From Bacteriovoracaceae bacterium (GTDB lineage: Bacteria; Bdellovibrionota; Bacteriovoracia; Bacteriovoracales; Bacteriovoracaceae), in the NCBI GenBank assembly GCA_018649885.1, contig JABIHA010000127.1, forward strand, positions 50,238 through 70,237: a stretch of DNA of 20,000 nucleotides. The letters run 5' to 3'. The stretch's first letter is position 1. Each line of letters starts with the position of its first letter. The position numbers and the translations under genes were made by a program. Shown here piece by piece: positions 2,284 to 18,744 of this stretch. A model generated the notes under the pieces. That model did no database searches. It was not told the DNA's origin and saw nothing but the letters and a program-made list of their open reading frames with translations.

Positions 2284-2979
2284 ATGAAAAAAAAAGTCGC
2301 AATCGCAATATTTGTAAAAACCCCCAAATTTTCATCTTGTAAAAGTCGCTTGGCCAAAACAATTGGCACTAGTGCTGCCGTTAAGTTTCATTTATTCTCC
2401 TCAAATATTGTGGGAGAAACAGTATCTAGTGTGACTCAGGCCCAAGGGTTTTGGTCAATCGCTGAGCTTGAAGCAATGGATGGCGAATACTGGGGTGGTG
2501 GATTAAAAAAAATCCATCAAGGAAAAGGATCTTTAGGGGAGAGACTGGATAGAGTTTACCAAACTCTGTCACAAGACTTCGAAAAAGTGATCTTCCTTGG
2601 AGCTGATTGTCCACAAGTTGAAAAATCTCAAATCGATCATGCCTTAAAAAAACTTGAAAAAGCTGATTTTGTATTTGGTCCTTCAGAAGATGGAGGTTTT
2701 TATCTATTTGGTGGAGCCGCGCCCATCTCTAGAGAAATTTGGAATGAAACTCGCTACAGCGAAAGTGACACCTTAGCTCAAATTTCCAGAAGCTTAAAAT
2801 CCATTGGTAGTGTTGAGATTATTGAAAGTCTATTTGATGTAGATCATTTTGATGAATTTAAAAAATTAGGCACTGCTCTAGGAAGCTTTCAAAACTTGAC
2901 TCCAAAAAAGAAAGAGTTACTTAATTTTATTGATCACTTAGTTGAAGAGCAGGAAGCTCCTCCAAGTACACAAAACTGA
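2284..2979 (+). CDS. TIGR04282/DUF2064 family transferase (arsenosugar/rSAM-associated, CofC-like fold)
   Basis: IFVKTP..KSRLA, G.LGERL, FLGADCP, GPSEDGGFYLFG and LFDVD motifs. Confidence 0.88.
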   Translation: MKKKVAIAIFVKTPKFSSCKSRLAKTIGTSAAVKFHLFSSNIVGETVSSVTQAQGFWSIAELEAMDGEYWGGGLKKIHQGKGSLGERLDRVYQTLSQDFEKVIFLGADCPQVEKSQIDHALKKLEKADFVFGPSEDGGFYLFGGAAPISREIWNETRYSESDTLAQISRSLKSIGSVEIIESLFDVDHFDEFKKLGTALGSFQNLTPKKKELLNFIDHLVEEQEAPPSTQN

Positions 2980-3860
2980 GCGCAAAACTTGTGGGCCAGA
3001 TGTACTCTTGATAGAGACTCTTTAAGTGAATATCCCATCTCAAATTTGGGGTCATATGCTAGGAGTGTACAAGGCATAACCACTATTCGTGATTCTCCCT
3101 TTTTCTTAATGACCATCCTCTGTGTTGCACACATCTGATCTTCTGGTCTTTTACCGAGTATACTCCAGCAACCAGTACTTATTTCAGGGACATTTTTTTG
3201 TAGATCCATCTCGGGGAAGATCACCAACTTTTTCTCGATATCAATACTTATACCATGAGAATTTAATAATCTTTGGTAGCTGCATTTTGCATCAGTACTA
3301 GTTTCTTCTTTGAGAGATCTTCCAGCAATTGAAATATTAAATCGGCTCACAAATAACCACTCAACCATCTTTAGACACGAATCAAATGTGCCTTGCCCTC
3401 TTTCCTTCTCATGCAGTTCTTTTGTATGGTGATCAAGTGATATCCTGATATGCAATTTGTCACTATAGCGTACTAACAAACTTAAAAGAGCAATTTTGTG
3501 CCTTTCTAAAACTCTGTGAGCATTGGTCAGCACTAGTACTTCGAATCCACGGGATAGAATTTCTTCTAAAATTTCTATGATTTGTGGATTCAAAAATGGT
3601 TCACCGCCGGTTAAACCTATTAAATTTGTGGTCATCTGATTTTCTTTGATTTCGTCAAGAAAAGGTGTGATATCTTTTGTTTCAATGAAAGACAGCCTGT
3701 CATTGCTAGGAGAGGATTCAATATAACAGTTCTTGCAGCTAAGGTTGCATTTTGTGCCAGTATTAAACCAAAGAGTTTTTAGTAGCTGAAAATCAACAAA
3801 GGCCCTTTGTTTCCCACATACTGTGGACTCTGGGTTTTTAAAGTAGAGGTTAGTATCCAT
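2934..3860 (-). CDS. Radical SAM protein, ArsS-related by context; likely start ATG 3860
   Basis: CNLSCKNC (CxxxCxxC), LTGGEPF, VLTN, ISLD, RGQGTF; Cys-rich C-terminus CAQFCVLGGASC. ATG 3860 overlaps the DUF547 stop (translational coupling). Confidence 0.88.
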   Translation of the reverse strand: MDTNLYFKNPESTVCGKQRAFVDFQLLKTLWFNTGTKCNLSCKNCYIESSPSNDRLSFIETKDITPFLDEIKENQMTTNLIGLTGGEPFLNPQIIEILEEILSRGFEVLVLTNAHRVLERHKIALLSLLVRYSDKLHIRISLDHHTKELHEKERGQGTFDSCLKMVEWLFVSRFNISIAGRSLKEETSTDAKCSYQRLLNSHGISIDIEKKLVIFPEMDLQKNVPEISTGCWSILGKRPEDQMCATQRMVIKKKGESRIVVMPCTLLAYDPKFEMGYSLKESLSRVHLAHKFCAQFCVLGGASCSSTK

Positions 3861-4617
3861 TAAGATTCCAATCATAGTCCATGTAATCAATTCTAGTCGA
3901 TTTATTCTTTATGAGTTGTTGCTCAGAAATATCTTGGGTAAAGTAAGTTGCTAGAAAATTTGGGACACTACCAAACTTTTTCTTAAAGTCACCTTTGTAC
4001 CATTTAAAAATTTTACTCAAATTAAGTGTCTGCTTTTTTAAGTTCCAGCGATTTTTTTTCCTATCAGTAATAAAAGAAAAAGTGGCCTTTTCAAGTTGAG
4101 AATTTAAAGAGGTTGGGTAGAAGGCTTCAGGGTATAGGTTTGGGCAACCAATAGACGCGCAGTTCACTGCAAAGTGAATCCTGGGTTCATTGAAGTTTTT
4201 TCTAATCATGTCGTGCTCAATACCATCGAGACTTCTTTCTTCTTCAAGGAGAATGAAAAATTTCTTTTTCCAAGGACTGGTAAAAAGTGAGCCCAGCTTT
4301 TTAATTGATTCTAATGGGAAATTATCTACTATGAGTTTTACGGTGAAGGCATTGTAAGCATTGATCAGAAATGCCAGCTTTTCATTTTTTGAAAATGCAT
4401 TGTATTCTTTTTTACTTACAGCAGTTAAGCTACCCAGGTATTTAACCAAAAGATTTTTTTCTTTTTTTACTCCACGGTAATTTACCAAGTTTTGCTTACC
4501 ATTTTTTCTCATATTCTTTTTGAGAATCATTGACCACTCTCTATGCGAGTGATCGAAGGCGTAAGAATTCGATAGGACAAAAAATGCGCAAATTGTGAAT
4601 AGTGATTTTAGCAACAT
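3850..4617 (-). CDS. DUF547 domain exported protein
   Basis: Signal peptide; LAFLINAYNA, LDGIEH, EPRIHFAVNCASIGCP, LSKIFKWY..DF, YDWNLN. Confidence 0.9.
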   Translation of the reverse strand: MLLKSLFTICAFFVLSNSYAFDHSHREWSMILKKNMRKNGKQNLVNYRGVKKEKNLLVKYLGSLTAVSKKEYNAFSKNEKLAFLINAYNAFTVKLIVDNFPLESIKKLGSLFTSPWKKKFFILLEEERSLDGIEHDMIRKNFNEPRIHFAVNCASIGCPNLYPEAFYPTSLNSQLEKATFSFITDRKKNRWNLKKQTLNLSKIFKWYKGDFKKKFGSVPNFLATYFTQDISEQQLIKNKSTRIDYMDYDWNLNGY

Positions 4618-5663
4618 GATCCCTCCGTAGAGTTTTTGCCACTAACCCCTTCAAATGGTGATGAACTACCACAGCCAGGAAAAATGCCATAATGGTCGTC
4701 AAAGGTTCCATAAAAATCGAAATGTTTTTCAAAACGAGTATTTTTTAACATCAAAAATGTATTTCCACAGACTTTCTCCAACTTTGCTTTTTCAAAGTTG
4801 TGATGGCCATCTAAATCAAATGATGTGGGTTGTTCTGAAATTGTTCCTTTATAGGCCACACTCTGTCCATAATCTTCACAGTCATCCTCAAGTCCATCAA
4901 CTTTAAATAGTCTGTAGGTTAGGGAGTAAAATTCTGTTCCCTCTAGTTTTTCTTTGATCGAATCATTTTCAATGGTAATTGGTTTTTTGCTAACACAACG
5001 AGCATCACGAAAGCCCACGGCCTTTGCAATCTTCAAAAAATCATTCCAGTAAAGAGCTCCACTAAGACATTCTCCGTAGAGAACTGGATCAGCTTGCAAT
5101 TCGGCTGATATTCTTCTGCTGGCGTAAACATCTGAGAAATAGAATTCGCCACCAGACTTTAATTTGTTGAAACAATCTCTTAGAACTTTTTCTTTATTTT
5201 TACATAAGTTAATCACGCAGTTTGAAATGATTAAATCAAAGTAATCATTTTTAAGGGGAGTTTCTTCCATTTCATCAATATTGCCTTTGATAAAACTAAT
5301 ATTGGGTTTTTGGTAAGAAAATTTCTCCGTGTGATAATCTACATACTTATTTGCAACGAGAAGTTGCTCATCTGTCATATCAAGACCTACAACTTCACCA
5401 CTTTCACCCACGAGTTTTGAGGTGATATAAGCATCTCTGCCACTTCCAGATCCAAGATCGAGAACTTTAAGGCCTGCTAGCTCACTGGGAATGGCAAGAC
5501 CACAGCCGTAATACTTTCTATGAACTTCATCATGGACTAAGGACATTGCCTCTTTGATAAAATTTGGCGGCGGCTCTAATGTGCAGCACGCGTTTGTTTT
5601 TAAATCATCAGACTCTTTTAATTCTTTTCCGTAGTACTCTTGAACTTCTTGGTGGATGTCCAT
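4608..5663 (-). CDS. arsM: Arsenite methyltransferase (ArsM/AS3MT family)
   Basis: V.EYYG...LKTNACC, YYGCG, VLDLGSGSGRD, GLDMT, ISNCVINL, GECLSGALY cover the four conserved AS3MT/ArsM cysteine positions; C-terminal GSCC. Confidence 0.82.
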   Translation of the reverse strand: MDIHQEVQEYYGKELKESDDLKTNACCTLEPPPNFIKEAMSLVHDEVHRKYYGCGLAIPSELAGLKVLDLGSGSGRDAYITSKLVGESGEVVGLDMTDEQLLVANKYVDYHTEKFSYQKPNISFIKGNIDEMEETPLKNDYFDLIISNCVINLCKNKEKVLRDCFNKLKSGGEFYFSDVYASRRISAELQADPVLYGECLSGALYWNDFLKIAKAVGFRDARCVSKKPITIENDSIKEKLEGTEFYSLTYRLFKVDGLEDDCEDYGQSVAYKGTISEQPTSFDLDGHHNFEKAKLEKVCGNTFLMLKNTRFEKHFDFYGTFDDHYGIFPGCGSSSPFEGVSGKNSTEGSCC

Positions 5664-7798
5664 ACTTTTTCACCTCGCACATAGCTATGAAATTTTTCTA
5701 TAAATCTTAAAAGTTTTTCTGGTTTTCTATTTTGCTTATAAACTCCGGCCAGGTATTTATTTGCCTCGCTCATTGTTGGGTAGGGATGAATAGTTCCCAG
5801 TATTTTATTTAACCCCAATCCATGCTTCATAGCAAAGGTAAATTCGCTTAAAAGCTCTCCAGCATTGTATCCAACTATGGTGGCACCTAAAATTCTATCA
5901 CTTCCTGTCTTGGTGATTACCTTCACAAATCCTGCTGCTTCACCTTCACAAATGGCCCTATCCAAATCATCTATGCCATATTTTGTGACTTCATATGAAA
6001 GTCCTTGCTCTTTAGCTGCTCTCTCATTCACTCCCACAGTTGCAACCTCTGGATCGAGATAGGTGCACCAAGGAATTGTTTGATAGTCCACCTTGAATTT
6101 CTTCACTGCACCAAAGAGTGCATTAACAGATGTGTACCAAGCTTGATGGGCCGCTACGTGAGTTAGCTGATAGGGCCCTGTTACATCTCCGCAGGCGTAT
6201 ATATTGGGATAGTTTGTCTGTAGATACTCATTGGCCTCTATAGTGCCATTTCTTCTTAGTTCAACCCCTAGCTCTTCAAGGCCAAATCCTTTGGTGTTTG
6301 CCTTTCTTCCAACTGCCACTAGCACCTTATCAAATTCGATGATGACTTCACCGATAGCACTAGAGCAAGTAAGCCGGTTACCCTTAAACTTAATGGCCTT
6401 GTGAGTTGTGAGAATATTGACTCCTTCTTTTTCGAGCTTATTTTTGACAAATTCACTGACTTCCTCATCTTCTCTAGCTAAAAGCAAGGGCGCCATTTCT
6501 ACAACGCTAACACTTGAGCCCAGTCTATTAAATGTTTGTGCCATTTCTAGACCTATTGGTCCTCCTCCTAGAACAATAAGTCTTTTGGGAAGCTCTTCTA
6601 ATTTCCAAAGATTTTCAGATGTTAATACATCTGCTTTTTCAATCCCTGGAATTGGGGGGACAAATGGTGAGGCACCCGTTGCAACGACAATATTTTTTGT
6701 TTTAATAATTTGGCCGTTAACTTCGACTTCCCAAGGAGATATAATTTTGGCCTCTCCAGAGAAACATTCAACTCCCAGAGATGAATACCTTTCCACAGAG
6801 TCATGGGGTTCAATTTTTTCTATAACCTTTTGAACTCGATTCATTACATTTTTAAAGTCGAATTCTATTTCAGTACTTGTTAATCCCAGCTCATTTGCCT
6901 TTTTGGCCATATGAAGAATTTTTGCTGATTTAATAATTGCCTTTGAGGGGACACATCCCGTGTTGAGGCAATCACCTCCCATTTTATCTTTTTCAATTAA
7001 GGCGACTCTAGCTTTAACAGCGGCTCCAATATAAGATGTCACAAGTCCAGCTGCTCCTCCTCCGATGGCCACAATATTGTAGTCAAACACCTCGGGCTTT
7101 TTGAACTTTTTGTAAACAGAGTTTGCTTTAAATTTATCTACAATCTTTTTTGAGATAATTGGAATTAGGCCAAGTACGGTGAATGAGAGAAGGATTGAAG
7201 GAGATAGTATGCCTGAGATCGATTTTAATTTTGAGAGCTGAAGTCCTGCATTAACATAGGCCATAGTCCCTAGAATCATCCCTATTTGGCTGACGAAAAA
7301 ATAAGTGTGAGTTTTAATTTTGGTAAGGCCCATTACAAGGTTAACTAAAAAGAAAGGGAAAAGAGGAACCAGCCTTAAAGAGAAGAGGTAGAATGCTCCC
7401 TCTTTTTCAATTCCCTTATTAATTGAGTTGATCTTGCTGGCAAATTTCTTTTCAACAAAATCTCTTAAAACTAACCTTGCCACCAAAAAAGCCAGCGTTG
7501 CTCCTATGGTACTGGCAAAGGAAACAATGATTGTCCCAGTAACAAATCCAAATATCGCACCACCAACCAAGGTAAGAACAGTCGCGCCTGGAAGTGATAG
7601 TGCGGTAGAGACAATATAAATGAGAGCATAACTGCCAATAGTTAATATTTGATTTTGAGCATAAAAAGATCTGATGGAATCTAAATTTTGTTGGAAGTAA
7701 TCCAGACTTAGATATGATTGAAGATTAAAAATCTTTACTACGGCTAGTAAAATTAAAATTAATAAAATTATCAAAATTTTTGTTTGCTTCTTTTTCAT
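5618..7798 (-). CDS. DedA/VTT (TVP38) domain fused to a pyridine nucleotide-disulfide oxidoreductase (MerA/LpdA-like)
   Basis: N-terminal TM region with LPGA..L...GG..FG and LRLVPLFPFFLVN; then IGGGAAG, GGDCLNTGCVPSK, LGGGPIGLE, ACGDV, IHPYPT.SE. Lacks the MerA C-terminal Cys pair. Confidence 0.92.
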   Translation of the reverse strand: MKKKQTKILIILLILILLAVVKIFNLQSYLSLDYFQQNLDSIRSFYAQNQILTIGSYALIYIVSTALSLPGATVLTLVGGAIFGFVTGTIIVSFASTIGATLAFLVARLVLRDFVEKKFASKINSINKGIEKEGAFYLFSLRLVPLFPFFLVNLVMGLTKIKTHTYFFVSQIGMILGTMAYVNAGLQLSKLKSISGILSPSILLSFTVLGLIPIISKKIVDKFKANSVYKKFKKPEVFDYNIVAIGGGAAGLVTSYIGAAVKARVALIEKDKMGGDCLNTGCVPSKAIIKSAKILHMAKKANELGLTSTEIEFDFKNVMNRVQKVIEKIEPHDSVERYSSLGVECFSGEAKIISPWEVEVNGQIIKTKNIVVATGASPFVPPIPGIEKADVLTSENLWKLEELPKRLIVLGGGPIGLEMAQTFNRLGSSVSVVEMAPLLLAREDEEVSEFVKNKLEKEGVNILTTHKAIKFKGNRLTCSSAIGEVIIEFDKVLVAVGRKANTKGFGLEELGVELRRNGTIEANEYLQTNYPNIYACGDVTGPYQLTHVAAHQAWYTSVNALFGAVKKFKVDYQTIPWCTYLDPEVATVGVNERAAKEQGLSYEVTKYGIDDLDRAICEGEAAGFVKVITKTGSDRILGATIVGYNAGELLSEFTFAMKHGLGLNKILGTIHPYPTMSEANKYLAGVYKQNRKPEKLLRFIEKFHSYVRGEKVWTSTKKFKSTTEKN

Positions 7799-7840
7799 AC
7801 TCGCCTATATATTTATTTCAGGTTCATCCCGGTTACCTTT

Positions 7841-7870
7841 GTTAGTGTGCCGAGATGGTATATTGTTACA
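7841..7870 (-). promoter_or_regulatory. Putative ECF sigma promoter, copy 1 (TGTAAC-N16-ACACTAAC), for the reductase-arsM-DUF547-rSAM operon
   Basis: Minus strand tgtaac aatataccatctcggc acactaac, about 43 nt upstream of ATG 7798; same motif and spacing at 8381 and 10033. Confidence 0.7.
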
Positions 7871-7906
7871 CAAGATTATTTATTAAAAGGTGCAAGCATT
7901 AAAGTA

Positions 7907-8479
7907 GTGGACCCCGAATTTACCCAGAAGTTGAAAAATGGAGATAAAGACGCCATGTCTAAAATCGTCCATGACTACTCGTCCCATCTATTCAAAGCAG
8001 CTCTGGGTCTAGGTTTTGATGAAAATGAGTCCAAAGAGTTGACTCAAAAAACCATGGTTAAATTCGTGGAAGTGGTCCATAAATTTGAGGGTAGGTCTCA
8101 TATTCGGACCTTTTTATTCGGCATTTTCTATAATCACGTTCATGAGGCGAGAAGATCCTTCAAAAAGGCCCAAAGCCATGACCCTATTGATGAAGTGGCG
8201 GAGTCGATGTTCGATGAGCGTGGCAATTGGCAAAAAGATGCCAGGGTAAGTTCCCCAGAAAAGTTTTTAGAAGCCTGTCAAACTATGGATATCATTGAAT
8301 TATGCTTAGATAAGTTACCCATAAGACAGAAGATGGCCTTCACACTAAAATTTGTTGATTCCGCCGAAACGAGTGAAATATGTAACTTATTGACGGTTTC
8401 TGACACTAACCTAAGACAGCTGCTTTTTAGAGCAAAGAGTAGGCTGAGACTCTGTGTTGAGTCTCACATGAATAAATAA
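7907..8479 (+). CDS. ECF sigma-70 factor; start probably GTG 7907 or ATT 7898 rather than 7784
   Basis: Region 2 ELTQKT...FEGRSHIRTFLFGI; FDERGNW; region 4 LDKLP.RQK.AF.LK.....EIC..L......RQLLFRAKSRLR.C. Confidence 0.9.
   Translation: MDPEFTQKLKNGDKDAMSKIVHDYSSHLFKAALGLGFDENESKELTQKTMVKFVEVVHKFEGRSHIRTFLFGIFYNHVHEARRSFKKAQSHDPIDEVAESMFDERGNWQKDARVSSPEKFLEACQTMDIIELCLDKLPIRQKMAFTLKFVDSAETSEICNLLTVSDTNLRQLLFRAKSRLRLCVESHMNK
8381..8410 (+). promoter_or_regulatory. Putative ECF promoter, copy 2, embedded in sigma region 4 and pointing at the anti-sigma gene
   Basis: tgtaac ttattgacggtttctg acactaac: 14/14 box positions identical to copy 1 with the same 16-nt spacer; 80 nt before ATG 8490. Confidence 0.6.
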
Positions 8480-8489
8480 GGACGCGAGA

Positions 8490-8735
8490 ATGTTAAGTTG
8501 CAAAGAACTTTACGAACATTTGGCCAGTGGCAAAGAGCTTACTAGGATCCAAAAGCTTCAGTATCCTATGCACCTTTTTATGTGTCACAACTGCAAAAAA
8601 ATTGCCTCTCAATTTAAAACCATAAATTCTAGCTTTAAAAAAGTCGTGACCAAGAGAATGGAAAAGGCAAGTGAAGATAAAATTAGCGAGCTGGAAAAAA
8701 GCGTTTGGGAAGAAGTAGAGCGTAAAATTTCTTAA
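8490..8735 (+). CDS. Soluble zinc-binding anti-sigma factor (ZAS, zf-HC2)
   Basis: MLSCKE...HLFMCHNC (HxxxCxxC); 10 nt after the sigma stop; no TM segment. Confidence 0.88.
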   Translation: MLSCKELYEHLASGKELTRIQKLQYPMHLFMCHNCKKIASQFKTINSSFKKVVTKRMEKASEDKISELEKSVWEEVERKIS

Positions 8736-9999
8736 AGTAAACTTCGAAGTAATTAAACAAAATTGGAAAATACCACATGTGGACTAAAACCTCTGCAAGT
8801 CGGTTGTACTGGTAATATCCATAAGGGGTATAAGACAGGCAGCTAAAAAAGGCGTAGGCCATGGCCCACTTATTTTTTGTATATAGTGAAAATAGTAAAA
8901 ACCAAATTGTGTACCAGGGATTGAATACAGGTGAGAAAAATATCATGGAGCTGTGAAGGATCACTCCTGCTTCAAAAAAGGCACCTTTTTGCAGAGGCCT
9001 TGTCATCACTTTTAAATGCACAAGAGTCACGACCATTAAAAATGCTGCAAATGTAATCTGCCTCGCCAGTGGAATTTCTAGTTCAAGTAGATTAACTAAA
9101 AGTGAGTAAAATCCGGGAATCCATACCCAGTCCTTACTAAAACTGAGTACACCACTAAGTAAATTCAAATCAGTGATGTGGAACCAAAAAAATAGTCCAA
9201 GAGATAGGGGAATAAAAGCTGAAGCTAATATGCTCCTAACTTTGTTAATAGGTGTGGTTTTATTTGTAATAAAAAAAATAGGGAGAGTCACCACGCCAAT
9301 GAGTTTGCTCCAAAAGCTCATGAAATAAAGTCCATAGGTTAATAGCGTTCGTTTCCCATCTTTTTCCTTCAGCGCAAAAAGAGGTAATAGAAAAACTGCT
9401 GCAAAAAGATCTATATGAACAGCTTGAATATATTCTTTTTGTAAAAGAGGAAAAAATACACATAAGTAAAGAGCAGGCGTATTTCTTTTTGTGAAAAACC
9501 TAAATACTAAAGCAATCAGAAGTGCATTGAGGAGCATTAAACCCCGGAAAGCAAATTCGAAGGGGAGCTTGGCCACCAGGCTAAACCACAGTATTCCCAG
9601 CGGAGGATAAATCGTCGTGAGGTTGGAAAACCCAATACGATTTTTAGCCGCGTATTCGATATGTGACAGGGCCGCGTGGTCTGGGGATAGAAGGTAGGGG
9701 CTGAGGCCACTGGCCATAACTTTCCCCTCCCATATATAGCGGTAATGATCATTTTCAAAAATTGGTGAGTGAGAACACATTACCATTACCACACCGATGA
9801 AAAAGGCCACAGGTGAGAGTTCAAAATTAGTGGAGTGTTTTTTTAAAAGCACTAAGCACAAGGCCAGAAATCCAAAATTGTATAAGATGTAATAGATACC
9901 ACCAAAGTACTCCGGTCCCGGAGATTTTAGTGCGTAGGAAACTACTGCTAGGAAAAGTGCATTAAGTATCCAAAGAAAATTGATCTTATTTTTTGTCAT
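8683..9999 (-). CDS. GT-C-type (GT87-like) polytopic membrane glycosyltransferase; start ATG 9999 or 10005
   Basis: Many TM helices; ENDHYRYIWEG, TIYPPL, H.D, SPVFNPWY motifs. Confidence 0.75.
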   Translation of the reverse strand: MTKNKINFLWILNALFLAVVSYALKSPGPEYFGGIYYILYNFGFLALCLVLLKKHSTNFELSPVAFFIGVVMVMCSHSPIFENDHYRYIWEGKVMASGLSPYLLSPDHAALSHIEYAAKNRIGFSNLTTIYPPLGILWFSLVAKLPFEFAFRGLMLLNALLIALVFRFFTKRNTPALYLCVFFPLLQKEYIQAVHIDLFAAVFLLPLFALKEKDGKRTLLTYGLYFMSFWSKLIGVVTLPIFFITNKTTPINKVRSILASAFIPLSLGLFFWFHITDLNLLSGVLSFSKDWVWIPGFYSLLVNLLELEIPLARQITFAAFLMVVTLVHLKVMTRPLQKGAFFEAGVILHSSMIFFSPVFNPWYTIWFLLFSLYTKNKWAMAYAFFSCLSYTPYGYYQYNRLAEVLVHMWYFPILFNYFEVYFKKFYALLLPKRFFPAR

Positions 10000-10003
10000 A
10001 TCC

Positions 10004-10033
10004 ATTAGTGTGAAATATATGTAAATTGTGACA
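10004..10033 (-). promoter_or_regulatory. Putative ECF promoter, copy 3 (TGTCAC-N16-ACACTAAT), for the GT-C gene
   Basis: Minus strand tgtcac aatttacatatatttc acactaat; the -10 box overlaps ATG 10005. Confidence 0.65.
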
Positions 10034-10068
10034 CTTTTTCAAACGAGGTCGTAATTAGTAAAAAAGAT

Positions 10069-10779
10069 GTGATTGTCATTATCCCCGCCTTGAATGAAGA
10101 AGATTCTATCGGCTTGGTTTTACAAGAGATTCCCATGAAAAGGGTCAAACAAGTTATTGTTGTTAATAATGACTCAAGTGATCAAACAGCTTGTGTTGCA
10201 ACCAAGCATGGCGCTCATGTGGTTCATGAACCAATTCGTGGCTACGGTAAGTGTTGCCTGACAGGAATCGCTGAGGCCAGAAAAGATCCAGCTGACATAG
10301 TGGTTTTTTTAGATGGAGATTACTCTGATCACCCAGAGGAGATGGACCAACTCCTTTCTAAGCTTGATAGCGGATACGACTTTGTCATAGGAAGTAGAAT
10401 GCTTGGAAAAGCAAAGCCGGGGGCGCTTCTTCCTCAGGCCCGGTTTGGAAACTGGCTGGCCACAACACTTACTAAATGGTTTTTTGGAGGAGTTGCCTTC
10501 TCTGACCTGGGACCATTCAGGGCCATTAAGTGGAGCTCGCTTGAGAGAATAAAAATGTGCGATGAAGACTTTGGTTGGACTATGGAGATGCAAGTTAAGG
10601 CCATAAGCTTTGGGCTTAAATACACAGAAGTCAGCGTCAGTTATCGAAAGCGCGTAGGAGTTTCTAAAATTACCGGAACAGTCTGCGGAACTATCAAGGC
10701 CGGTTACAAAATTCTCTATACTATTTTTAAGTACCGCATTCTTAGTTGGATTAAATCAAGCTCATTTTCTTCAAAATAA
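10069..10779 (+). CDS. Glycosyltransferase family 2, DPM1/polyprenol-phosphate glycosyltransferase-like
   Basis: IIPALNEE, VNNDSSD, RGYG, FLDGDYSD, VIGSR, DLGPFRAI, GWTMEMQ, EV.V.Y..R.G.SK. Confidence 0.9.
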   Translation: MIVIIPALNEEDSIGLVLQEIPMKRVKQVIVVNNDSSDQTACVATKHGAHVVHEPIRGYGKCCLTGIAEARKDPADIVVFLDGDYSDHPEEMDQLLSKLDSGYDFVIGSRMLGKAKPGALLPQARFGNWLATTLTKWFFGGVAFSDLGPFRAIKWSSLERIKMCDEDFGWTMEMQVKAISFGLKYTEVSVSYRKRVGVSKITGTVCGTIKAGYKILYTIFKYRILSWIKSSSFSSK

Positions 10780-11519: not shown

Positions 11520-11539
11520 AATTTAATAAACAAAAAATG

Positions 11540-11569
11540 AAAAGGGAGCTAGCTGGCTCCCTTTTTTTT
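11540..11569. terminator. Bidirectional rho-independent terminator
   Basis: AAAAGGGAGC-tagctg-GCTCCCTTTTTTTT between convergent genes. Confidence 0.9.
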
Positions 11570-11571
11570 AT

Positions 11572-12492
11572 TTAAAGTTTAAAATTGGTATTTAAGATTT
11601 GATTGCTCCAAGAAATCCTTTTTTGATCATTTATAGAGTAACCATACAGTGAATCACCTATCAGAGTGTATATGGCTTTTTGTTCAACTCTTTTTTCGAA
11701 GTCTTTATCAACATGTCCAGAATAATTTTCCACTACCATATGATAAAATTTACGATTAGATGCCCATATACAAGCAAAGTCTGCTGCTGGATCTCCAATG
11801 GCCATATCTGTCCAGTCGATAATTCCGGTGATCTTATTTTCTGCTCCCCCACAAATAATATGTTCAACACCTAAATCATTGTGAGTGAGAACCTTTTTTC
11901 CAAGAAAAGGTGTAATGCCCTTGTACTTTTCAAAGAGTATATTGAATTTATTCCATACACTTATTGGAATCATACCTTTCATTTCTTCAAGATTTTTTTT
12001 TGTCTCATCTCTAAAGTCTTTTGTAACTTCACTTCTTTCTTCAAAAATAGAGAGGTTTTCAATTTTTTTCAATGTATTCAAACTGTGCAAGGTCGTTAAA
12101 AAATCTCCCATGGTTTTTGCGTTAGCGATTGTTGCATATTGACTGGGAGGTATCTCGATAATGGGAGCACCTTCAATTTTTTTATAACCACCGATTGTAT
12201 TGGGGAAGACCTTCGAGGAATGAGAAATAAATGAATAATCTGGGGATAAAATGGGAAGCGAGTCGCTTAAAAGCTTCATCACCTCTAGTTCTTTGTTGAA
12301 TAAGGAGTTGTATTTGTCTCGTCTAGGAAAACGAAAGATAAATTCAGCGTTGATTTCAAAACAATTAAAATCCCATCCACTACCAAGAAATTTTATAGAT
12401 GATACTAAAAGTTCGGGAAAAGCTTCAGCCAGAATAAGTTTCGCCTTCGCACAATCCAAAGAATATTGATCTTCCCACTGCTTTGGGTCCAT
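11572..12492 (-). CDS. Aminoglycoside phosphotransferase (APH)/choline kinase family protein
   Basis: LGSGWD, FIFRFPR, E...L, HNDLGVEHI (Brenner motif), GIIDWTD...GDPAADF. Confidence 0.85.
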   Translation of the reverse strand: MDPKQWEDQYSLDCAKAKLILAEAFPELLVSSIKFLGSGWDFNCFEINAEFIFRFPRRDKYNSLFNKELEVMKLLSDSLPILSPDYSFISHSSKVFPNTIGGYKKIEGAPIIEIPPSQYATIANAKTMGDFLTTLHSLNTLKKIENLSIFEERSEVTKDFRDETKKNLEEMKGMIPISVWNKFNILFEKYKGITPFLGKKVLTHNDLGVEHIICGGAENKITGIIDWTDMAIGDPAADFACIWASNRKFYHMVVENYSGHVDKDFEKRVEQKAIYTLIGDSLYGYSINDQKRISWSNQILNTNFKL

Positions 12493-13892: not shown

Positions 13893-16004
13893 TTATTTTA
13901 GCAATTGGTAATACAAGCTTAGCGCCCTAATGGCTTCATATCGTCCACCCATACCATATCTACAGTATGAGATTTCTTTCACTAAAATTCCTGTGAATTC
14001 TGGTTCGTATACAGTTGGGTTCTTCTCAACGAAATCAACTAGCCAACGCACTCCTTTTTCAAGTGCTTTAGTGTATCTTGTGGGGCATCGATTTATGAGG
14101 CTAAGTACAGAACAGGTCTTGCTGTCTTTTTTGGCCATGCTCTCAAATCTCGCAAGCATTCTGATAGCCCATACTGTAGCTGTCATTGATGATTTAGCAC
14201 TGACAAAATACTTCTTTTGATCACTAATTGGATCTTCACCCCAGCCACCATCTATATTTTGTTTTTCAACTAACCACCTTACATGTCTCTGAGCTCGGTT
14301 GGCCTTAGTCCAGCATTTCGCGTCTAACAAACCAATTATTGCTTGAGTTGTGCCGTAAATGTAGTTAATACCCCAGTCACCTTCAACAATATCAATTCCA
14401 AAAAATGGTTTAAAGAGTTTACGTTCAAGGAAACTACAAGCACTATTTATTGTTGTTTTCAATTTGGGAGGATTGTAGCCAGTAGCATTTCTTGCGAACA
14501 CTAATCCTTCAAGAGCACGGGCCGTAACATCGGGTTGGCTTACATCGAAGTAGCTTGGAAGTCTTTTATCCATTTTTGCTATTTCACTTAGTAGGGTAGA
14601 CATTCCTTTTTCATATGCAGGAAATCCACCGTCACTATTTTGCATTCCAATTTCCCAGTCCATACCTTTTTTAATACTTTCTAACCAACGAGTGTTTGCC
14701 TTCCCAGCATCAAGAACAGGATTACTGGCCAAAGCCGTGAGCACCATTCCTGTATCATCGGTATCCGGGTAAAAAGTATTGGCATGTTGAAATCCCCATC
14801 CCCCTGGTTTTAAATCTGGTGCTGTAAATTTGTAGTCACCATCAACTATTGGTTGTAGCTTAATCAACCAATCAATGGCGCGGGCCTTGGAATTGAGTGG
14901 CAAAAGAGTTGTTTCAGTAATTTTTTCACTTTCAGCTATAACGGCCATCCCTCTGGCAGTGTCAACAATAGGGCCATCTGAAACCTGAAGGTAGCCTTCA
15001 CCTGAATCTGATTGATCAGCGTCAATCCACCAAGAATGAAACATACCATCCCACCCAGCTTTCATCTGGGCACTATAGTCAGCCACTCCAGCGCGGTCTG
15101 CCTCGTATAAGGCCCAAATAGACATCAAAGTGACATAGGGAACCCCGTACCAGGTGCCATCTTTTTCTTGTCGTTTTAATAAATATCCAAGACCTTCTTG
15201 GGCCCAAAAATCTTCTGGGTATCTGGAGAATTTCTTTGCAAGATTAATAGTCCCTTCGACAATGCTTTCAAAACCTGTGTTCAATATAAAACTTGGAAGC
15301 TCACTTACACCCAAAATTAATGAGCTTCCTTTTCCGAAAGCCTCCCCAGCAGAATCAATTCTACTTTGTTCAATTAAAGATCCCTTATGTCCTGACTCAT
15401 TAACTCTTTGATAGAAATTGGCAACGGCCAGTGGAACACCTGCTGAGCGGAAGGTCCCAATATTTATAATATTCATTGGTGTCCACTTTGGAAGAGCGAA
15501 AAATATGGGAGTCACTTTTGATACAAAAAAGTCTTTTTTAACTCCAGCAATGTGCAACATCCCTCTATGCAAAAAATGCAAATCAATAAGGCTTTTACCT
15601 TGAGCTCTCAACCAGTTCCACTCAGTTTTAAATTGATCAACACTGTCTACATCATAGTCTTTCAACATATGTAAAAGAGAATAGGTAATATGAAAATTAG
15701 TGGCCCCACCTGGATAAAGTGGCCATCCCGTTTTAGTTTTCCACTTCCAAGTGGTAACTCTTTTTAATAATTTTTGCTCTTGTTCACTCGTTATGAGTCC
15801 GGTTCTCTTCCCAACCATCAGTACCGCAGCTTCAGTCAGAGGATCCCCTTCAAACTCCCCTTGAAAATAACCATCAGAGCTCTGCTCTTTGGCCAAATCA
15901 TCTGCCAGTTTTAAAATACTGTCCTTTACTGTGGCTTTCATTGAATCAGCAAAGCTTGTTTGCATAAAAAATAATGCTATAAAAAGCACCAAAACCCTCT
16001 TCAT
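13893..16004 (-). CDS. shc: Squalene-hopene cyclase-like class II terpene cyclase with an N-terminal signal peptide
   Basis: GGWGFQ..N..YPDTDDT (DxDD); QW repeats QEKDGTW, QNSDGGF, QNIDGGWGE; DVTARALE; GDWGINYIYGT; GGAG RBS. Confidence 0.8.
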   Translation of the reverse strand: MKRVLVLFIALFFMQTSFADSMKATVKDSILKLADDLAKEQSSDGYFQGEFEGDPLTEAAVLMVGKRTGLITSEQEQKLLKRVTTWKWKTKTGWPLYPGGATNFHITYSLLHMLKDYDVDSVDQFKTEWNWLRAQGKSLIDLHFLHRGMLHIAGVKKDFFVSKVTPIFFALPKWTPMNIINIGTFRSAGVPLAVANFYQRVNESGHKGSLIEQSRIDSAGEAFGKGSSLILGVSELPSFILNTGFESIVEGTINLAKKFSRYPEDFWAQEGLGYLLKRQEKDGTWYGVPYVTLMSIWALYEADRAGVADYSAQMKAGWDGMFHSWWIDADQSDSGEGYLQVSDGPIVDTARGMAVIAESEKITETTLLPLNSKARAIDWLIKLQPIVDGDYKFTAPDLKPGGWGFQHANTFYPDTDDTGMVLTALASNPVLDAGKANTRWLESIKKGMDWEIGMQNSDGGFPAYEKGMSTLLSEIAKMDKRLPSYFDVSQPDVTARALEGLVFARNATGYNPPKLKTTINSACSFLERKLFKPFFGIDIVEGDWGINYIYGTTQAIIGLLDAKCWTKANRAQRHVRWLVEKQNIDGGWGEDPISDQKKYFVSAKSSMTATVWAIRMLARFESMAKKDSKTCSVLSLINRCPTRYTKALEKGVRWLVDFVEKNPTVYEPEFTGILVKEISYCRYGMGGRYEAIRALSLYYQLLK

Positions 16005-16316: not shown

Positions 16317-17576
16317 GTGGATATTTCTAGTAGGGGAAAGAAAAATTTTGCTCCAAGGATATTGGAGTATAGAAAACAAGTTGAAATTGTTGCTGCATTT
16401 TTCAAATATATCTCGCTAATCCTTTTTCTAGTGACTCTATTTACTATTTTTTTAAGCAGGCTTGTAACTGAACCGAAGGATGTAGCCTTCTACCTTACTA
16501 TATCATTTACAAGTGGAATAATTTGGCTATTTTACTATCCTTTATACTTCTTTTTGATCAAACCTCTTGCTACAAGTAAAATTCAAGTATTTGATGATAG
16601 TATTTTACTCACAAGAGGAAAAAAAGAAACCATCATACCATTCGATGAAATTACTTCTATTAAGAGAAAAGTAAATAAAAATGCAGGAGGGTGGTTTACC
16701 TTAGTGCTAAAGAATAAGAAAAAGTATAGATTTACTATCGTTTTAGAAAGGCTTGATTATATTTTGGATGCTGTTTACAAGTACAATAATCAACTTCTAA
16801 GTGAAGATGAATATCTAAGCCTTAGAAAGCAATTAATTCTTTCAGATCATGGTTTTGGTAGGCTCTATGATATGTTTGGGAGTCGGTATAAGTGGATTAC
16901 ATTTACTCATGCTTTTTTACTCCCTGCGGTTTTTATTATTGGTCTTTACATCAAGCAGGGTAGTCAATTTAATATCTACTTATCAGTGCTCTATTTTACC
17001 AAAATAATACAAGTTATTTTAATTACCTTGGGAGTCTTATGGGTCGCCTTTATCCTTATTGCAAATAAAATTTTGGATAAACATACTTCAAGCCAACTTG
17101 AGTCTAATTCTCTTTTAAAAAATAGGGACACTCAGTTTGAATCAAAAATTTTCAGAAGGTTATTTCCTGTCTATTTAGCCTTGATAATTTGTAGCTTTGC
17201 AGGAATTTACAAATATGACCTAAATACATATGGATTAACCTATATTAAAAAAGATTCCAAATATTTGGGGATAAAAGCAAATAAAAACTTGTGGGTAGAT
17301 ACAAAGTTTAACTGTTTAGATTGCAACTACTCTCTTGTGAGGGGAGACATTATCTTAGTTCATGGAGTTGGATTGGGAAAGATTGTTAATTTGCCAAACG
17401 AGCTGGTTACGATAAATGAAAAGGATAAAAAAGGTCGCCATATCGCTAGCACTACAGAAACGATGGTCCCACCAAGAAACCTAGCTATTCAAACATCTGG
17501 TGGTAAAGTGATTAAATTAGTACCTAACGTGAAAATAAAAGGAAAAATTCTCAAAAAACTTCCGATTGTTTTTTAA
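16317..17576 (+). CDS. Membrane protein: TM pair, bPH-like domain, TM bundle, degenerate S26 signal-peptidase-like C-terminus
   Basis: About five TM segments; IPFDEITSI is bPH-like; RGDIILV...KIVNLPNE...VP resembles S26 RGDIVVF..KRVIGLPG. Confidence 0.7.
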   Translation: MDISSRGKKNFAPRILEYRKQVEIVAAFFKYISLILFLVTLFTIFLSRLVTEPKDVAFYLTISFTSGIIWLFYYPLYFFLIKPLATSKIQVFDDSILLTRGKKETIIPFDEITSIKRKVNKNAGGWFTLVLKNKKKYRFTIVLERLDYILDAVYKYNNQLLSEDEYLSLRKQLILSDHGFGRLYDMFGSRYKWITFTHAFLLPAVFIIGLYIKQGSQFNIYLSVLYFTKIIQVILITLGVLWVAFILIANKILDKHTSSQLESNSLLKNRDTQFESKIFRRLFPVYLALIICSFAGIYKYDLNTYGLTYIKKDSKYLGIKANKNLWVDTKFNCLDCNYSLVRGDIILVHGVGLGKIVNLPNELVTINEKDKKGRHIASTTETMVPPRNLAIQTSGGKVIKLVPNVKIKGKILKKLPIVF

Positions 17577-18744
17577 AAAAAATCAAGCCCTGGAAAGATA
17601 CCTTTTTCATCCAGGCAGCCTTGAAGAAAGCAGGCAAGCCCAAGCTCTCCGGTCCAAAGAGTGTGGCGCTCATTTCTTCTTTCAATTGAGTGCATAGCAA
17701 ACTTTTGAGCTCTCTCAAGCCACTTTTGATCCCCAGTTCTTTGATAGATTTTCAGGAGACTGATGCCATTTCCGTCTGTTCCATGACAAATACCAATACC
17801 CTTTTTAAGAGGTCCTGCTTGCCAAATTAATTGACCTGCTTTTACAAAAAGTTTTTCAAACTCAGCATCATGGTTTTTTTCGATAGGTTCAAGGGATTGA
17901 ATCATTCCTGGGGCTCCATGACACCATTGGGTGGTAAAATAATCTGTCCCTTTTTCACCAAAAAAAAGTTGCTGGCCAATTTACAGTATCGTTTACTTCA
18001 GTAGCAAACTTTTTAGTCATTTCGATTGTTCGTTTAAGAATAAGCTCTCTTTGCTCTAGAGAGAGAAGATCTCCCCCCTTTTAGAAGTGGAAATGCATTT
18101 CCAAAATAGCCATGGCCTGATCCAATAAACGCTATAACTCGCTCATCTTGCTTATATTCCCAGTACCATGCACCTGACTCTTCATGGTATTTCCATACTT
18201 CATAGAGATGCTCCACATTTTTCAAGTAGAGTTCTTTAAAGCGTTGATCTTTTGTCCATTCAAATAAAAATAGAGCAGGCAGCATTGTACTTGGGCAACC
18301 CCATAGGGCATCTACGCATGGGTTTTAAATATTACTGCTTATGAGATTGTACAATTTGTCCAAAGTTTCTGTGTCAGGAGAAATTTTATATTTCAGTATG
18401 CAGATTCCGACTTCTCCAAGAAAGTACGAAGGACATACTGAATCTGTATCAGGCTCTTCAAGATATAGTTTGTGAATTTTTTGAATAAGATCATTTGCTG
18501 AAAAGGGCAGTTCAAATCCATTTTTTTCAGAAAGGTACTTCAGCCCCCAAAGGGTGCCTGTTGCGCCAAAATAGAAACTTTTATTTGACGCCGCGTCCCC
18601 ATCTTCGTCAGTGTGGGCAGGCTATAGGTTCTCTGTTAAAGCTGAAGTCGTTTTATCAAAGATATCTTTAATTACATCTTCCACTTGGTTTTTGTTTCAA
18701 GGTACGCTAGTTAAATCTTCGTGGTTTTCTTTGTCGTAATTCAT
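17573..18744 (-). pseudogene. Lanthionine synthetase C-like (LanCL) pseudogene
   Basis: Reconstructed MNYDKENHEDL...YFGATG.LWGL...LGEVG...LWG.P...GHGYFGN...NWP...QWCHGAPG...GICHGTDGNG...LWTGELG. Stops at 18697-18699 (TGA), 18622-18624 (TAG), 18325-18327 (TAA); +1 frameshifts at the C6 run 18073-18078 and the A8 run 17960-17967. Confidence 0.85.

Follow-up and report, generated by a model that had tools for sequence, protein, structure and literature searches.

Arsenosugar-associated gene neighbourhoods are represented in NCBIfam by TIGR04167, TIGR04282 and TIGR04283, with DUF547 proteins and a flavoprotein reductase as further members; the functions of the transferases in this neighbourhood are names given by association. 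Control of arsM is usually exerted via ArsR. As far as the reports cited here describe it, the arsenosugar pathway of Synechocystis sp. PCC 6803 is built on ArsM and ArsS (Xue et al. 2019; Cheng et al. 2021, as cited in PMC8552651, PMC12159101 and PMC13598754). The window (the whole 20,000-nt stretch of DNA that was analysed) resembles the Synechocystis system, so described, in placing an As(III) methyltransferase gene beside a radical SAM gene, with predicted first steps to DDMAA. It differs in that its radical SAM enzyme belongs to a separate family (69.6 bits against the TIGR04167 cut-off of 300, no DUF3641), its ArsM is long, algal-like and fails NF038099 (81.6 vs 400 bits), and it has an ECF/ZAS pair and a GT2/GT-C pair besides. 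The window shares with the NCBIfam neighbourhood TIGR04282, DUF547 and the reductase, with TIGR04283 elsewhere in the genome; unlike in that neighbourhood, TIGR04167 is replaced, and TIGR04283 and MTAP are unlinked to the host cassette. On balance, we favour the reading that the locus encodes an arsenosugar-type set in which an unnamed radical SAM enzyme stands in for ArsS, with its own predicted ECF control and an optional GT2/GT-C pair that would extend the pathway into the envelope.

Nine genes were confirmed between positions 2284 and 10779 by an ORF check, and every gene type that the initial annotation had placed within these 8.5 kb (arsM, radical SAM, DUF547, DedA-reductase fusion, TIGR04282, GT2, GT-C and ECF/ZAS) was present. 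The region comprises at least five transcription units, for which reason one continuous operon spanning 2284..10779 was rejected. The TIGR04282 gene is convergent with the radical SAM gene and overlaps it by 46 nt. The same genes were found together again in relatives in rearranged order, which argues that their clustering is beyond chance. The genomes compared came from the host's phylum (151 of the same family) and from Pseudomonadota (301), with Bacteroidota, Planctomycetota and cyanobacterial loci outside the comparison. The host, probably a marine, predatory-type bacterium, has a genome of 5.4 Mb (92% complete) in which acr3 was not found; a single ArsR-type HTH_5 gene is located on a different contig. 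An Rfam scan of the window gave no match.

The radical SAM enzyme (2934..3860, minus strand; 308 aa; PF04055) carries the cluster motif CxxxCxxC at C38/C42/C45 and six invariant C-terminal cysteines (C231, C244, C264, C293, C297, C304), and its family comprises at least 8,000 clusters. The initial annotation had likened it to ArsS, but membership of the ArsS family did not hold: its sub-cut-off match to TIGR04167 covered residues 35-179 only, and PF12345 (DUF3641), scoring 189.6 in the true ArsS of locus L118, gave no match. The C-terminal domain aligned with that of ArsS no better than the controls did (score 18.6, shuffled maximum 21.1). Five C-terminal cysteines of ArsS are present in the same order, ending GxSC, a likeness at motif level only. 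The best NCBIfam match was Rv1681 (79.9 bits), confined to the radical SAM core (residues 28-205), which it aligned as well as ArsS did; unlike the window's enzyme, the Rv1681 family has no C-terminal Cys domain. A 99.5% HHalign match to ArsS, obtained in forced global mode, was rejected as proof of orthology because Rv1681 scored equally over the core and the C-terminal test failed. When the ArsS profile was run over the host proteins, the radical SAM enzyme ranked first (1.1e-15; next 3.4e-8). Its predicted model (pLDDT 89.6) showed a twitch/SPASM-type radical SAM fold, and the fold search returned generic twitch/SPASM enzymes (BlsE, SuiB, anSME; TM ~0.58), with no structure named ArsS among the matches listed. 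Atlas searches with this enzyme and with the DUF547 protein returned only their own families.

The distribution of the enzyme points to replacement. In the family sample, where counts include kin and are not independent, it occurred in 67/151 genomes, long ArsM (counted by BLAST) in 57 and ArsS in 15. Forty-eight of the 57 long-ArsM genomes carried the new enzyme, in 37 of them within 10 kb, and the other nine all had an ArsS above cut-off, adjoining arsM in seven; both radical SAM families occurred together in one family genome only (G380). Conversely to this linkage, long ArsM was not found in 19/67 genomes with the new enzyme. In the family's ArsS loci the partner genes are the same, namely ArsM, DUF547, DedA-reductase, TIGR04282/3 and ECF/ZAS. 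Among the 301 Pseudomonadota genomes, the new family or a close sister was found in 29 and ArsS in 105, and comparison of the two lists gave zero overlap, an exclusion confounded by kinship. The unnamed family thus distributed likely fills the slot of ArsS, and since the ArsM also keeps its As-binding cysteines, the arsenosugar-type core proposed at the outset is supported. We think it probable that the enzyme forms DDMAA as ArsS does.

The ArsM (4608..5663, minus strand), a long, eukaryote-like As(III) SAM methyltransferase, matched the solved arsenite methyltransferase 5EVJ with E = 1.9e-96. It was below the cut-offs of both NCBIfam models (PRK11873, 160.4 vs 263 bits; NF038099, as given above) and much closer to algal enzymes of known structure (326 bits). 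Its C26/C54/C149/C199 correspond in the alignment to C44/C72/C174/C224 of the algal arsenite methyltransferase structure (numbering of PMC5552862), and the alignments assign to the product the SAM-binding fold and the four catalytic cysteines of ArsM/AS3MT. The operon is headed by a fusion of a VTT/DedA domain with a pyridine nucleotide-disulphide oxidoreductase (5618..7798, minus strand; profile matches). The reductase part has C277-x4-C282 and HPYPTMSE at 671; its last cysteine is C617, with none C-terminal. Mercuric reductase MerA has a C-terminal Cys pair, and this identity was rejected for the fusion because that pair is missing; the score against the MerA model was 394.8 bits, with a cut-off of 454.

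The DedA domain had initially been given the role of flipping the sugar-lipid. DedA proteins that flip UndP (COG0586) were recognised by an acidic residue on the first re-entrant helix's tip and a pair of basic residues on that of the second; the tips located by eye here, ALSLPGAT without an acidic residue and LRLVPLFP with one Arg, led us to reject this identity. Judged by eye on motifs and fusion partner, the domain is assigned to the COG0398 type. In PMC10127716, this type is judged unlikely to flip UndP and its commonest fusion is to PF07992/PF02852. Because the fusion is of the COG0398 type and adjoins only 4/24 GT-C loci, the proposed flipping step is unsupported, and a flippase role for this DedA domain is improbable.

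The DUF547 protein (3850..4617, minus strand; PF04784, 86 bits) is probably exported, since inspection of the sequence shows a signal-like stretch at its N-terminus; it was the commonest GT-C neighbour (16/24 loci). The TIGR04282/DUF2064 protein (2284..2979, plus strand; 136.3 bits, cut-off 134), a CofC-like putative nucleotidyl/sugar transferase, matched PDB 3CGX, a putative nucleotide-diphospho-sugar transferase (E = 1.3e-9). Elsewhere in the host genome we found TIGR04283 (C72:168719; 183.8 bits, cut-off 182) and MTAP (289.8 bits, cut-off 274.85), the latter adjoining the cassette in loci L022, L061, L071 and L092. Thus, among the profiles by which the initial annotation proposed to check the locus, TIGR04282 and PF04784 passed, TIGR04167 failed, TIGR04283 passed only outside the locus, and GT87 only in homologs of the GT-C protein.

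The ECF sigma factor (7907..8479, plus strand; open frame 7784-8479) likely starts at GTG 7907, as homolog lengths of ~193-212 aa suggest; its closest model was TIGR02943 (91 bits, below the cut-off of 162). Directly downstream lies the gene for a soluble zinc-binding anti-sigma factor (ZAS; 8490..8735, plus strand) with C4 and H28-x3-C32-x2-C35, no transmembrane segment, and a match below cut-off to NF052368 (E = 1.7e-6). Regions sigma2 and sigma4, the downstream HxxxCxxC protein and a candidate bipartite promoter together identify the two genes as an ECF/ZAS pair. Neisseria sigmaE/MseR and Streptomyces SigR/RsrA (PMC2893595) likewise have a small soluble ZAS directly downstream with Cys4 and HxxxCxxC (MseR having the same Cys pattern) and a small redox-type regulon; unlike in those systems, the predicted targets here are arsM, the radical SAM gene and the GT-C gene, and the predicted promoter is TGT[A/C]AC-N17-CACTAA.

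Three exact copies of this motif lie in the window, with 0.10 expected when one mismatch is allowed. One (TGTAAC-N17-CACTAA, 7842..7870, minus strand), which was among the sites used to define the motif, is 44 nt 5' of the DedA-reductase/arsM/DUF547/radical SAM operon; another (8381..8409, plus strand) lies within the sigma gene, 81 nt 5' of the anti-sigma gene; the third (TGTCAC-N17-CACTAA, 10005..10033, minus strand) is an exact match directly 5' of the GT-C gene, whose transcript is likely leaderless. The copy inside the sigma gene, found at the same position in seven relative loci, predicts a negative-feedback layout. Genome-wide, there were seven motifs vs 1.2 expected. The motif is conserved in eight relative genera, and 44 relative loci held 27 motifs with spacer 17, against 0-2 for eight other spacer lengths; the former preceded arsM (7), the anti-sigma gene (7), GT2 (4), DUF547 (3) and the radical SAM gene (1). 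With a matrix trained on relatives only, the window sites ranked 1st, 4th and 5th in the genome, the site at 10005..10033 being the top score of all 5.4 Mb. A sigma-70 scan of the window found 18 sites vs 24.9 expected. ECF homologs were present in 48/151 family genomes, 15 of them no farther than 10 kb from the radical SAM gene. Of 11 regions around ArsS loci, only 2 had the strict motif, and two in which an ECF gene adjoins ArsS lacked it. The proposed ECF control is thereby supported for the arsM operon, the anti-sigma gene and the GT-C gene, because the conserved motif precedes all three; it did not extend to TIGR04282 (best upstream PWM score -10.8) and GT2, which have no good copy in the window. 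The predicted regulon also takes in an AhpC/TSA protein and an AhpD-like peroxidase, as would suit a response to general thiol stress.

The GT-C glycosyltransferase (8683..10005, minus strand; GT87/MptB-like; likely start ATG 9999) had no Pfam match in a direct scan; PF26314 was a precomputed assignment, and GT87 was seen in its homologs. Its profile matched the structures of GPI-mannosyltransferase 1 and PimE (E 5e-9 to 6e-8), and its model gave TM 0.55-0.56 with ALG3 and GPI-mannosyltransferase 1, at E above 1e-3. The polytopic topology, the homology and D84 in the first external loop, invariant across 58 homologs, place the predicted product in the GT-C fold. The GT2 protein (10069..10779, plus strand), DPM1-like and of the polyprenyl-phosphate glycosyltransferase type, has as best family-profile match the dolichol-phosphate mannose synthase 5MLZ (E = 2.6e-15), then GtrB and ArnC, and is below the cut-offs of the named models (AglJ, 118.6; DPhHxTase, 73.3 bits). 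D82, D84, R110, E187, R195, G197, S199 and K200 are conserved (DxD, GSR and E..R..G.SK motifs). A possible ATT start at 10054, after GAGG, was read from the sequence. The pair resembles polyprenyl-phosphate modules that combine a DPM1/GtrB/ArnC-type GT2 with a GT-C enzyme such as PimE, GPI-mannosyltransferase 1 or ArnT, at weak similarity (E 1e-15 to 1e-8; fold E above 1e-3); unlike in those modules, the GT2 has no transmembrane segment and no GtrA/ArnEF-type flippase gene adjoins the pair.

The new radical SAM enzyme was present in 24/27 GT-C genomes (base rate 67/151), in 13 within 10 kb, and ArsS in a 25th. At least one cassette gene accompanied 23/24 GT-C loci, with TIGR04282 in 12 and GT2 in 14. 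The TIGR04282/GT2/GT-C trio adjoins the new enzyme in L064 and L092 and a true ArsS in L118, and in L121 the GT-C carries a fused TIGR04283-like domain (176.5 bits). GT-C was found in 0/20 Pseudomonadota ArsS loci. Plasmid searches gave one weak partial match for the window's GT-C and none for that of L064, and a single-protein scan of the genome contigs returned three loci only. Co-occurrence of GT2/GT-C with arsM and the radical SAM gene, on which the initial annotation had staked its proposal, was observed in two Pseudomonadota loci as well as among Bacteriovoracaceae-like relatives. The pair is an optional part of the cassette. We lean towards its acting in the arsenic pathway; that arsenoribose itself is the sugar carried is possible, though doubtful.

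In the reading that we favour, a signal that reacts with thiols, be it As(III), methyl-As(III) or an oxidant, would free sigma from the zinc anti-sigma factor, as the Cys pattern suggests, and sigma would transcribe the DedA-reductase/arsM/DUF547/radical SAM operon, the anti-sigma gene and the GT-C gene from the motifs described. ArsM would convert As(III) to dimethyl-As, with the flavoprotein reductase holding As, or the ArsM thiols, reduced. The radical SAM enzyme, taking the genomic place of ArsS, would join a 5'-deoxyadenosyl radical to dimethyl-As(III) to give DDMAA. Searches made largely outside subscription journals found no paper on this radical SAM family, on ECF control of arsM, or on the transferases and other enzymes that follow DDMAA on the way to arsenosugars and arsenolipids. 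Host MTAP may then remove adenine to yield arsenoribose-1-phosphate, which TIGR04282 could convert to an NDP form; TIGR04283 would make the usual beta-arsenoriboside. The enzyme types of the pair suggest that the DPM1-like GT2 would attach a sugar to polyprenyl phosphate, from which the GT-C would hand it on to a lipid or protein acceptor that faces outwards.

The arsenic core may also operate as proposed while the GT2/GT-C pair beside it handles ordinary hexoses or hexosamines (polyprenyl-P-Man/Glc/HexN, passed to lipid A, a glycolipid or a protein) and is only co-regulated in a thiol/oxidative-stress envelope response. The closest solved enzymes (DPM synthase, GtrB, ArnC, GPI-mannosyltransferase 1, PimE, ALG3) act on hexoses or Ara4N, the predicted regulon holds the peroxidase-type genes, and related ECFs with TGTAAC-like -35 boxes run redox genes (PMC3420878, PMC6180224). 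Moreover, GT-C is absent from 43/67 radical SAM genomes, and in the GT-C-bearing genomes G409 and G414 (98% complete) and in G309 and G327, which also bear it, ArsM and both radical SAM types were not found. The lipid-linked glycosylation module of the initial annotation stands as to its enzyme types and is not confined to genomes with a detected ArsM or ArsS-type enzyme. Left unexplained by a hexose module are the linkage of GT-C to TIGR04282 and DUF547, its recurrence in ECF-less loci, and the fusion to a TIGR04283-like domain, and we regard this explanation as conceivable rather than likely.

A more distant prospect, which we hold to be quite improbable, is that the radical SAM enzyme does not adenosylate arsenic and forms another 5'-deoxyadenosyl adduct (e.g. 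of Se, S or Sb) or takes part in a side reaction, with TIGR04282/GT2/GT-C serving as a general route for 5'-substituted riboses. It would accord with the 21% identity to ArsS, the lack of DUF3641 and a quick tree without a resolved sister placement to ArsS. Many alpha-type genes stand alone, 15/25 such loci having no cassette gene within ~10 kb (counted per locus, not genome-wide). A Roseomonas plasmid cassette lacks arsM and has a phosphonate-type ABC transporter and a second radical SAM gene. In G309 and G327, the same trio adjoins an Rv1679-81-type cassette (NF049973, with Rv1679/Rv1680-like genes), the family of the enzyme's best NCBIfam match, and ArsM was not found. Against such a function, 57/57 long-ArsM genomes carry the new enzyme or ArsS, the two being nearly exclusive and having the same neighbours, and the five C-terminal cysteines keep the ArsS order up to GxSC.

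If the new family does the job of ArsS, surveys of arsenosugar producers, which rely on the ArsS model, would overlook the majority of producers in this bacterial family (67 genomes vs 15) and a share of those in Pseudomonadota (29/301 sampled), and the census of marine arsenic cyclers would change. The arsM operon is predicted to be under an ECF/ZAS pair in place of the usual ArsR control. The lipid-linked branch suggests which genes to consider, and which stereochemistry to expect, for an envelope product containing arsenic. The full joint reading, which we consider unlikely as a whole, is that predatory Bacteriovoracaceae and many alphaproteobacteria-like genomes hold a second, annotation-missed family forming As-C bonds, and that the zinc anti-sigma factor senses trivalent arsenic and induces arsenoribose loading on polyprenyl phosphate and GT-C transfer to an envelope lipid. 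If it were true, the outcome of three inverting steps would be an arsenoriboside with an alpha linkage, in contrast to the beta-linked ones known from algae.

The nine genes that the initial annotation had placed at the locus were all found by ORF calling and by NCBIfam and Pfam profile searches of the window, which forms the final 20 kb of contig C143 in a genome of 5.45 Mb (38% GC, 92% complete). The host is probably a Bacteriovoracaceae-like bacterium of marine origin, because named homologs of its radical SAM protein come mostly from Bacteriovoracaceae/Halobacteriovorax and the sequencing runs that its study lists derive from marine metagenomes. The DedA-reductase, arsM, DUF547 and radical SAM genes follow one another on the minus strand with overlaps of 10-46 nt. 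The TIGR04282 gene (+; 136.3 bits, above the cut-off of 134) is convergent with this arsM operon. The ECF and anti-sigma genes (+) are divergent from the operon and convergent with the GT-C gene (-), which in turn diverges from GT2 (+) across 63 nt. The TIGR04283 and MTAP genes lie on other contigs of the host. A 128-aa ORF with a weak Hpt-like match (1876-2262, +) ends 21 nt upstream of TIGR04282 and is probably co-transcribed with it; its homolog was absent from the fetched loci.

Elsewhere in the window, an APH-family phosphotransferase gene (11572-12492, -; best NCBIfam match APH(2''), 88.5 vs a cut-off of 600) is followed by a strong bidirectional terminator (11539-11566). A divergent squalene-hopene cyclase-like gene (13893-16004, -; TIGR01507, 199 bits vs a cut-off of 431) is unexpected in this bacterial lineage. 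A LanC-like gene (17573-18285, -) is apparently fragmented into ORFs of 110 aa and 83 aa, with PF05147 on the first.

The window ArsM matched solved arsenite methyltransferases with E=1.9e-96 and, in the alignment, retained all four As-binding cysteines (numbering as in the available text of PMC5552862); it scored below the NCBIfam ArsM cut-offs. The reductase part of the DedA fusion carries a CxxxxC redox pair. A MerA identity was rejected, as the score fell below MerA's and the C-terminal cysteines were missing.

The radical SAM protein (308 aa; 2934-3860, -), given the adenosylating role of ArsS in the initial annotation, scored 69.6 bits vs the ArsS cut-off of 300 and lacks DUF3641, and a profile search found no true ArsS in the host genome. 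Its family is unnamed and tight, with at least 8,000 candidates at E 1e-20, all 8,000 scored passing and the best 120 of them showing 55-62% identity. Six C-terminal cysteines are invariant across the family, and the structure model appears twitch/SPASM-like. The five C-terminal cysteines of ArsS recur in the same order in the new protein. Sequence alone did not establish ArsS orthology: the core, which aligned to ArsS (99%, 215 columns, local mode), matched Rv1681 equally well, the C-terminal profiles scored 18.6 against a shuffled maximum of 21.1, and a quick tree did not place the family relative to ArsS.

The genomic evidence for replacement of ArsS by the new family was much stronger. The same 151 genomes of the host's family were searched for five proteins, giving the radical SAM in 67, long-type ArsM in 57 (leaving out six genomes whose matches were all short and at roughly 40% identity), GT-C in 27, the ECF factor in 48 and true ArsS in 15. 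The distribution was directly seen to be complementary: 48 of the 57 ArsM genomes hold the new radical SAM, within 10 kb of arsM in 37, and the other nine all hold true ArsS, adjoining arsM in seven. Both enzymes occurred in a single genome of the 151, where about 7 would be expected if they were independent, which kin are not. ArsS loci in family genomes have the same partner genes as the new-family loci. In Pseudomonadota (301 genomes), the new family was found in 29 (23 close, 6 sister-type; the sample's centre genome was selected for carrying the family) and ArsS in 105, with an overlap of 0; this exclusion lends weak support, because the sample is taxonomically clumped. Against replacement, long ArsM is missing from 19 of the 67 family genomes with the radical SAM, and among 25 alpha-type loci 15 lack a partner gene inside about 10 kb. 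ArsM was present in 4/25 alpha-type and 3/6 sister-type loci. It was also present in 6 of 20 ArsS loci, chosen out of the 105 genomes for their contig size, so ArsS too usually shows a split layout.

The genome with both enzymes (G380; contigs C36, C46 and C55), a suitable setting for comparing them, holds the new radical SAM and three related ECF genes, along with two copies each of ArsS, long ArsM and GT-C. On a Marinobacter adhaerens plasmid (NC_017507.1; L029:11809-12874), a sister-type radical SAM is split between two frames, is missing from the record's gene table and is followed by a sodium:solute symporter. A Roseomonas plasmid (NZ_CP061178.1; L028:9031-22089) carries TIGR04282, DUF547, a TrsS/Tes-like and a new-family radical SAM, and phosphonate-type ABC transporter, VTT and reductase genes; no arsM was found in that stretch. 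PiT/PHO4 phosphate transporter genes adjoin rSAM/arsM at L114:1-835, L118:16987-17850 and L140:11437-12585, one with an ECF motif 28 nt upstream, and possibly serve arsenate uptake.

Comparison of the ECF-to-cassette regions of relatives yielded the predicted promoter motif TGT[A/C]AC-N17-CACTAA. Three exact copies were observed in the window (0.10 expected with one mismatch allowed): before the arsM operon (a site used in defining the motif), before the anti-sigma gene (inside the sigma gene) and directly upstream of GT-C. Transcription from these three sites would begin near 7835(-), 8415(+) and 9999(-), respectively. The host genome holds 7 exact copies vs 1.2 expected. When the pattern was slightly relaxed, 27 sites with spacer 17 were counted across 44 relative loci, compared with 0-2 for any of eight other spacer lengths. 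These span eight genera and are redundant (22 distinct without an in-gene site); they precede arsM (7), anti-sigma (7), GT2 (4), DUF547 (3), spondin-domain (3), rSAM (1) and AhpC (1) genes, one lying inside a gene. A matrix trained without the host ranked the GT-C site 1st in the host genome and the other two window sites 4th and 5th. Motif conservation, ranks and spacing make co-regulation of the arsM operon and GT-C a well-supported prediction. The proposed ECF control of the locus thus stood for the arsM operon, the anti-sigma gene and GT-C, but not for TIGR04282 or GT2: the same matrix found no good site upstream of these, TIGR04283 or MTAP in the host.

Two more predicted host targets encode an AhpD-like peroxidase and an AhpC/TSA protein. 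The site ranked 3rd (G000:C21:121582, -) has no ORF downstream, being directed antisense towards a 218-aa gene at its 3' end, and is possibly a small RNA or chance. The window anti-sigma shares its Cys pattern with Neisseria MseR (in the part of PMC2893595 available), and excerpts of PMC6180224 and PMC3420878 describe redox genes under ECFs whose -35 boxes are similar. The inducing signal may be either arsenic or general thiol stress. The ECF gene lay within 10 kb of the radical SAM in only 15 of 48 ECF family genomes, and of 11 regions retrieved around ArsS loci, 2 contained the strict motif, whereas two that have an ECF gene alongside lacked it. At L061:2866-3507, an alpha-type cassette is preceded by a gene for an NrsF-type anti-sigma factor, a hint that elsewhere the cassette is under the control of other redox-type ECFs.

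The GT2 profile was nearest to dolichol-phosphate mannose synthase, GtrB and ArnC, and that of GT-C to GPI-mannosyltransferase 1 and PimE; the GT-C model (pLDDT 89.7) appeared nearest to ALG3 and GPI-MT1. D84 is invariant, and GT-C belongs to a wide family (7,058 representatives). Co-occurrence of GT2/GT-C with arsM/rSAM, expected from the initial annotation, was borne out: 24 of 27 GT-C family genomes have the new radical SAM and a 25th has ArsS, and 23 of 24 fetched GT-C loci hold at least one cassette gene (DUF547 16, window-type GT2 14, TIGR04282 12). In Pseudomonadota, strong GT-C matches occurred in 6/301 genomes (7 places, 6 with a cassette gene), plus 2 weak matches. The linkage is real, and the pair is an optional part of the cassette, GT-C being absent from 43 of 67 rSAM family genomes and all 20 Pseudomonadota ArsS loci. 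The suggestion that the DedA domain flips the lipid was not upheld: it is of the oxidoreductase-fused COG0398 type, judged an unlikely UndP flippase in the accessible portion of PMC10127716, and it adjoins only 4 of 24 GT-C loci, the reductase accompanying it each time. Among the Pseudomonadota places with a cassette gene, L121:15787-17775 encodes a 662-aa fusion of GT-C with a TIGR04283-like GT2 domain; its neighbour is a cellulose-synthase-like GT2, and a sister-type rSAM/arsM cassette lies about 24 kb away.

In the pathway suggested by the gene identities and catalytic residues observed, ArsM would methylate arsenic and the new radical SAM would, quite likely, make DDMAA, the product of the ArsS reaction in the available text of PMC13598754, PMC12159101 and PMC8552651. 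MTAP, whose gene adjoins the cassette in four loci, would remove adenine, the TIGR04282 protein (related to 3CGX) may activate the sugar, and TIGR04283 transfer would give beta-ribosides, as listed for algae in part of PMC10456119. For the GT2/GT-C branch, arsenoribose is a possible donor, at well below even odds; an ordinary sugar put on an arsenic-containing acceptor is slightly less probable, and the rest of the probability, the largest share, falls to mere co-regulation or another product. The pair also occurs in G409 and G414 (both 98% complete), G309 and G327, four genomes whose searches for ArsM and for an ArsS-type enzyme both came back empty. In G309 and G327 it flanks an Rv1679-81-type cassette: at L123:7421-15682 and L124:7430-15747, TIGR04282, GT-C and window-type GT2 are joined to Rv1679/Rv1680/Rv1681-like genes and a SPASM radical SAM, and ArsM was not found in these two 62% GC genomes. 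Were arsenoribose the donor, an alpha-anomer would be predicted, because GT2 and GT-C enzymes invert.

An arsenosugar-associated gene neighbourhood is already named in NCBIfam. Our literature search found nothing on the downstream enzymes, the new radical SAM family or ECF control of arsM; the Xue 2019 and Cheng 2021 supplements may list homologs. To this neighbourhood, the locus adds what is probably a second family of ArsS type, distributed in a pattern of within-family replacement, and a defined promoter linking arsM to GT-C.
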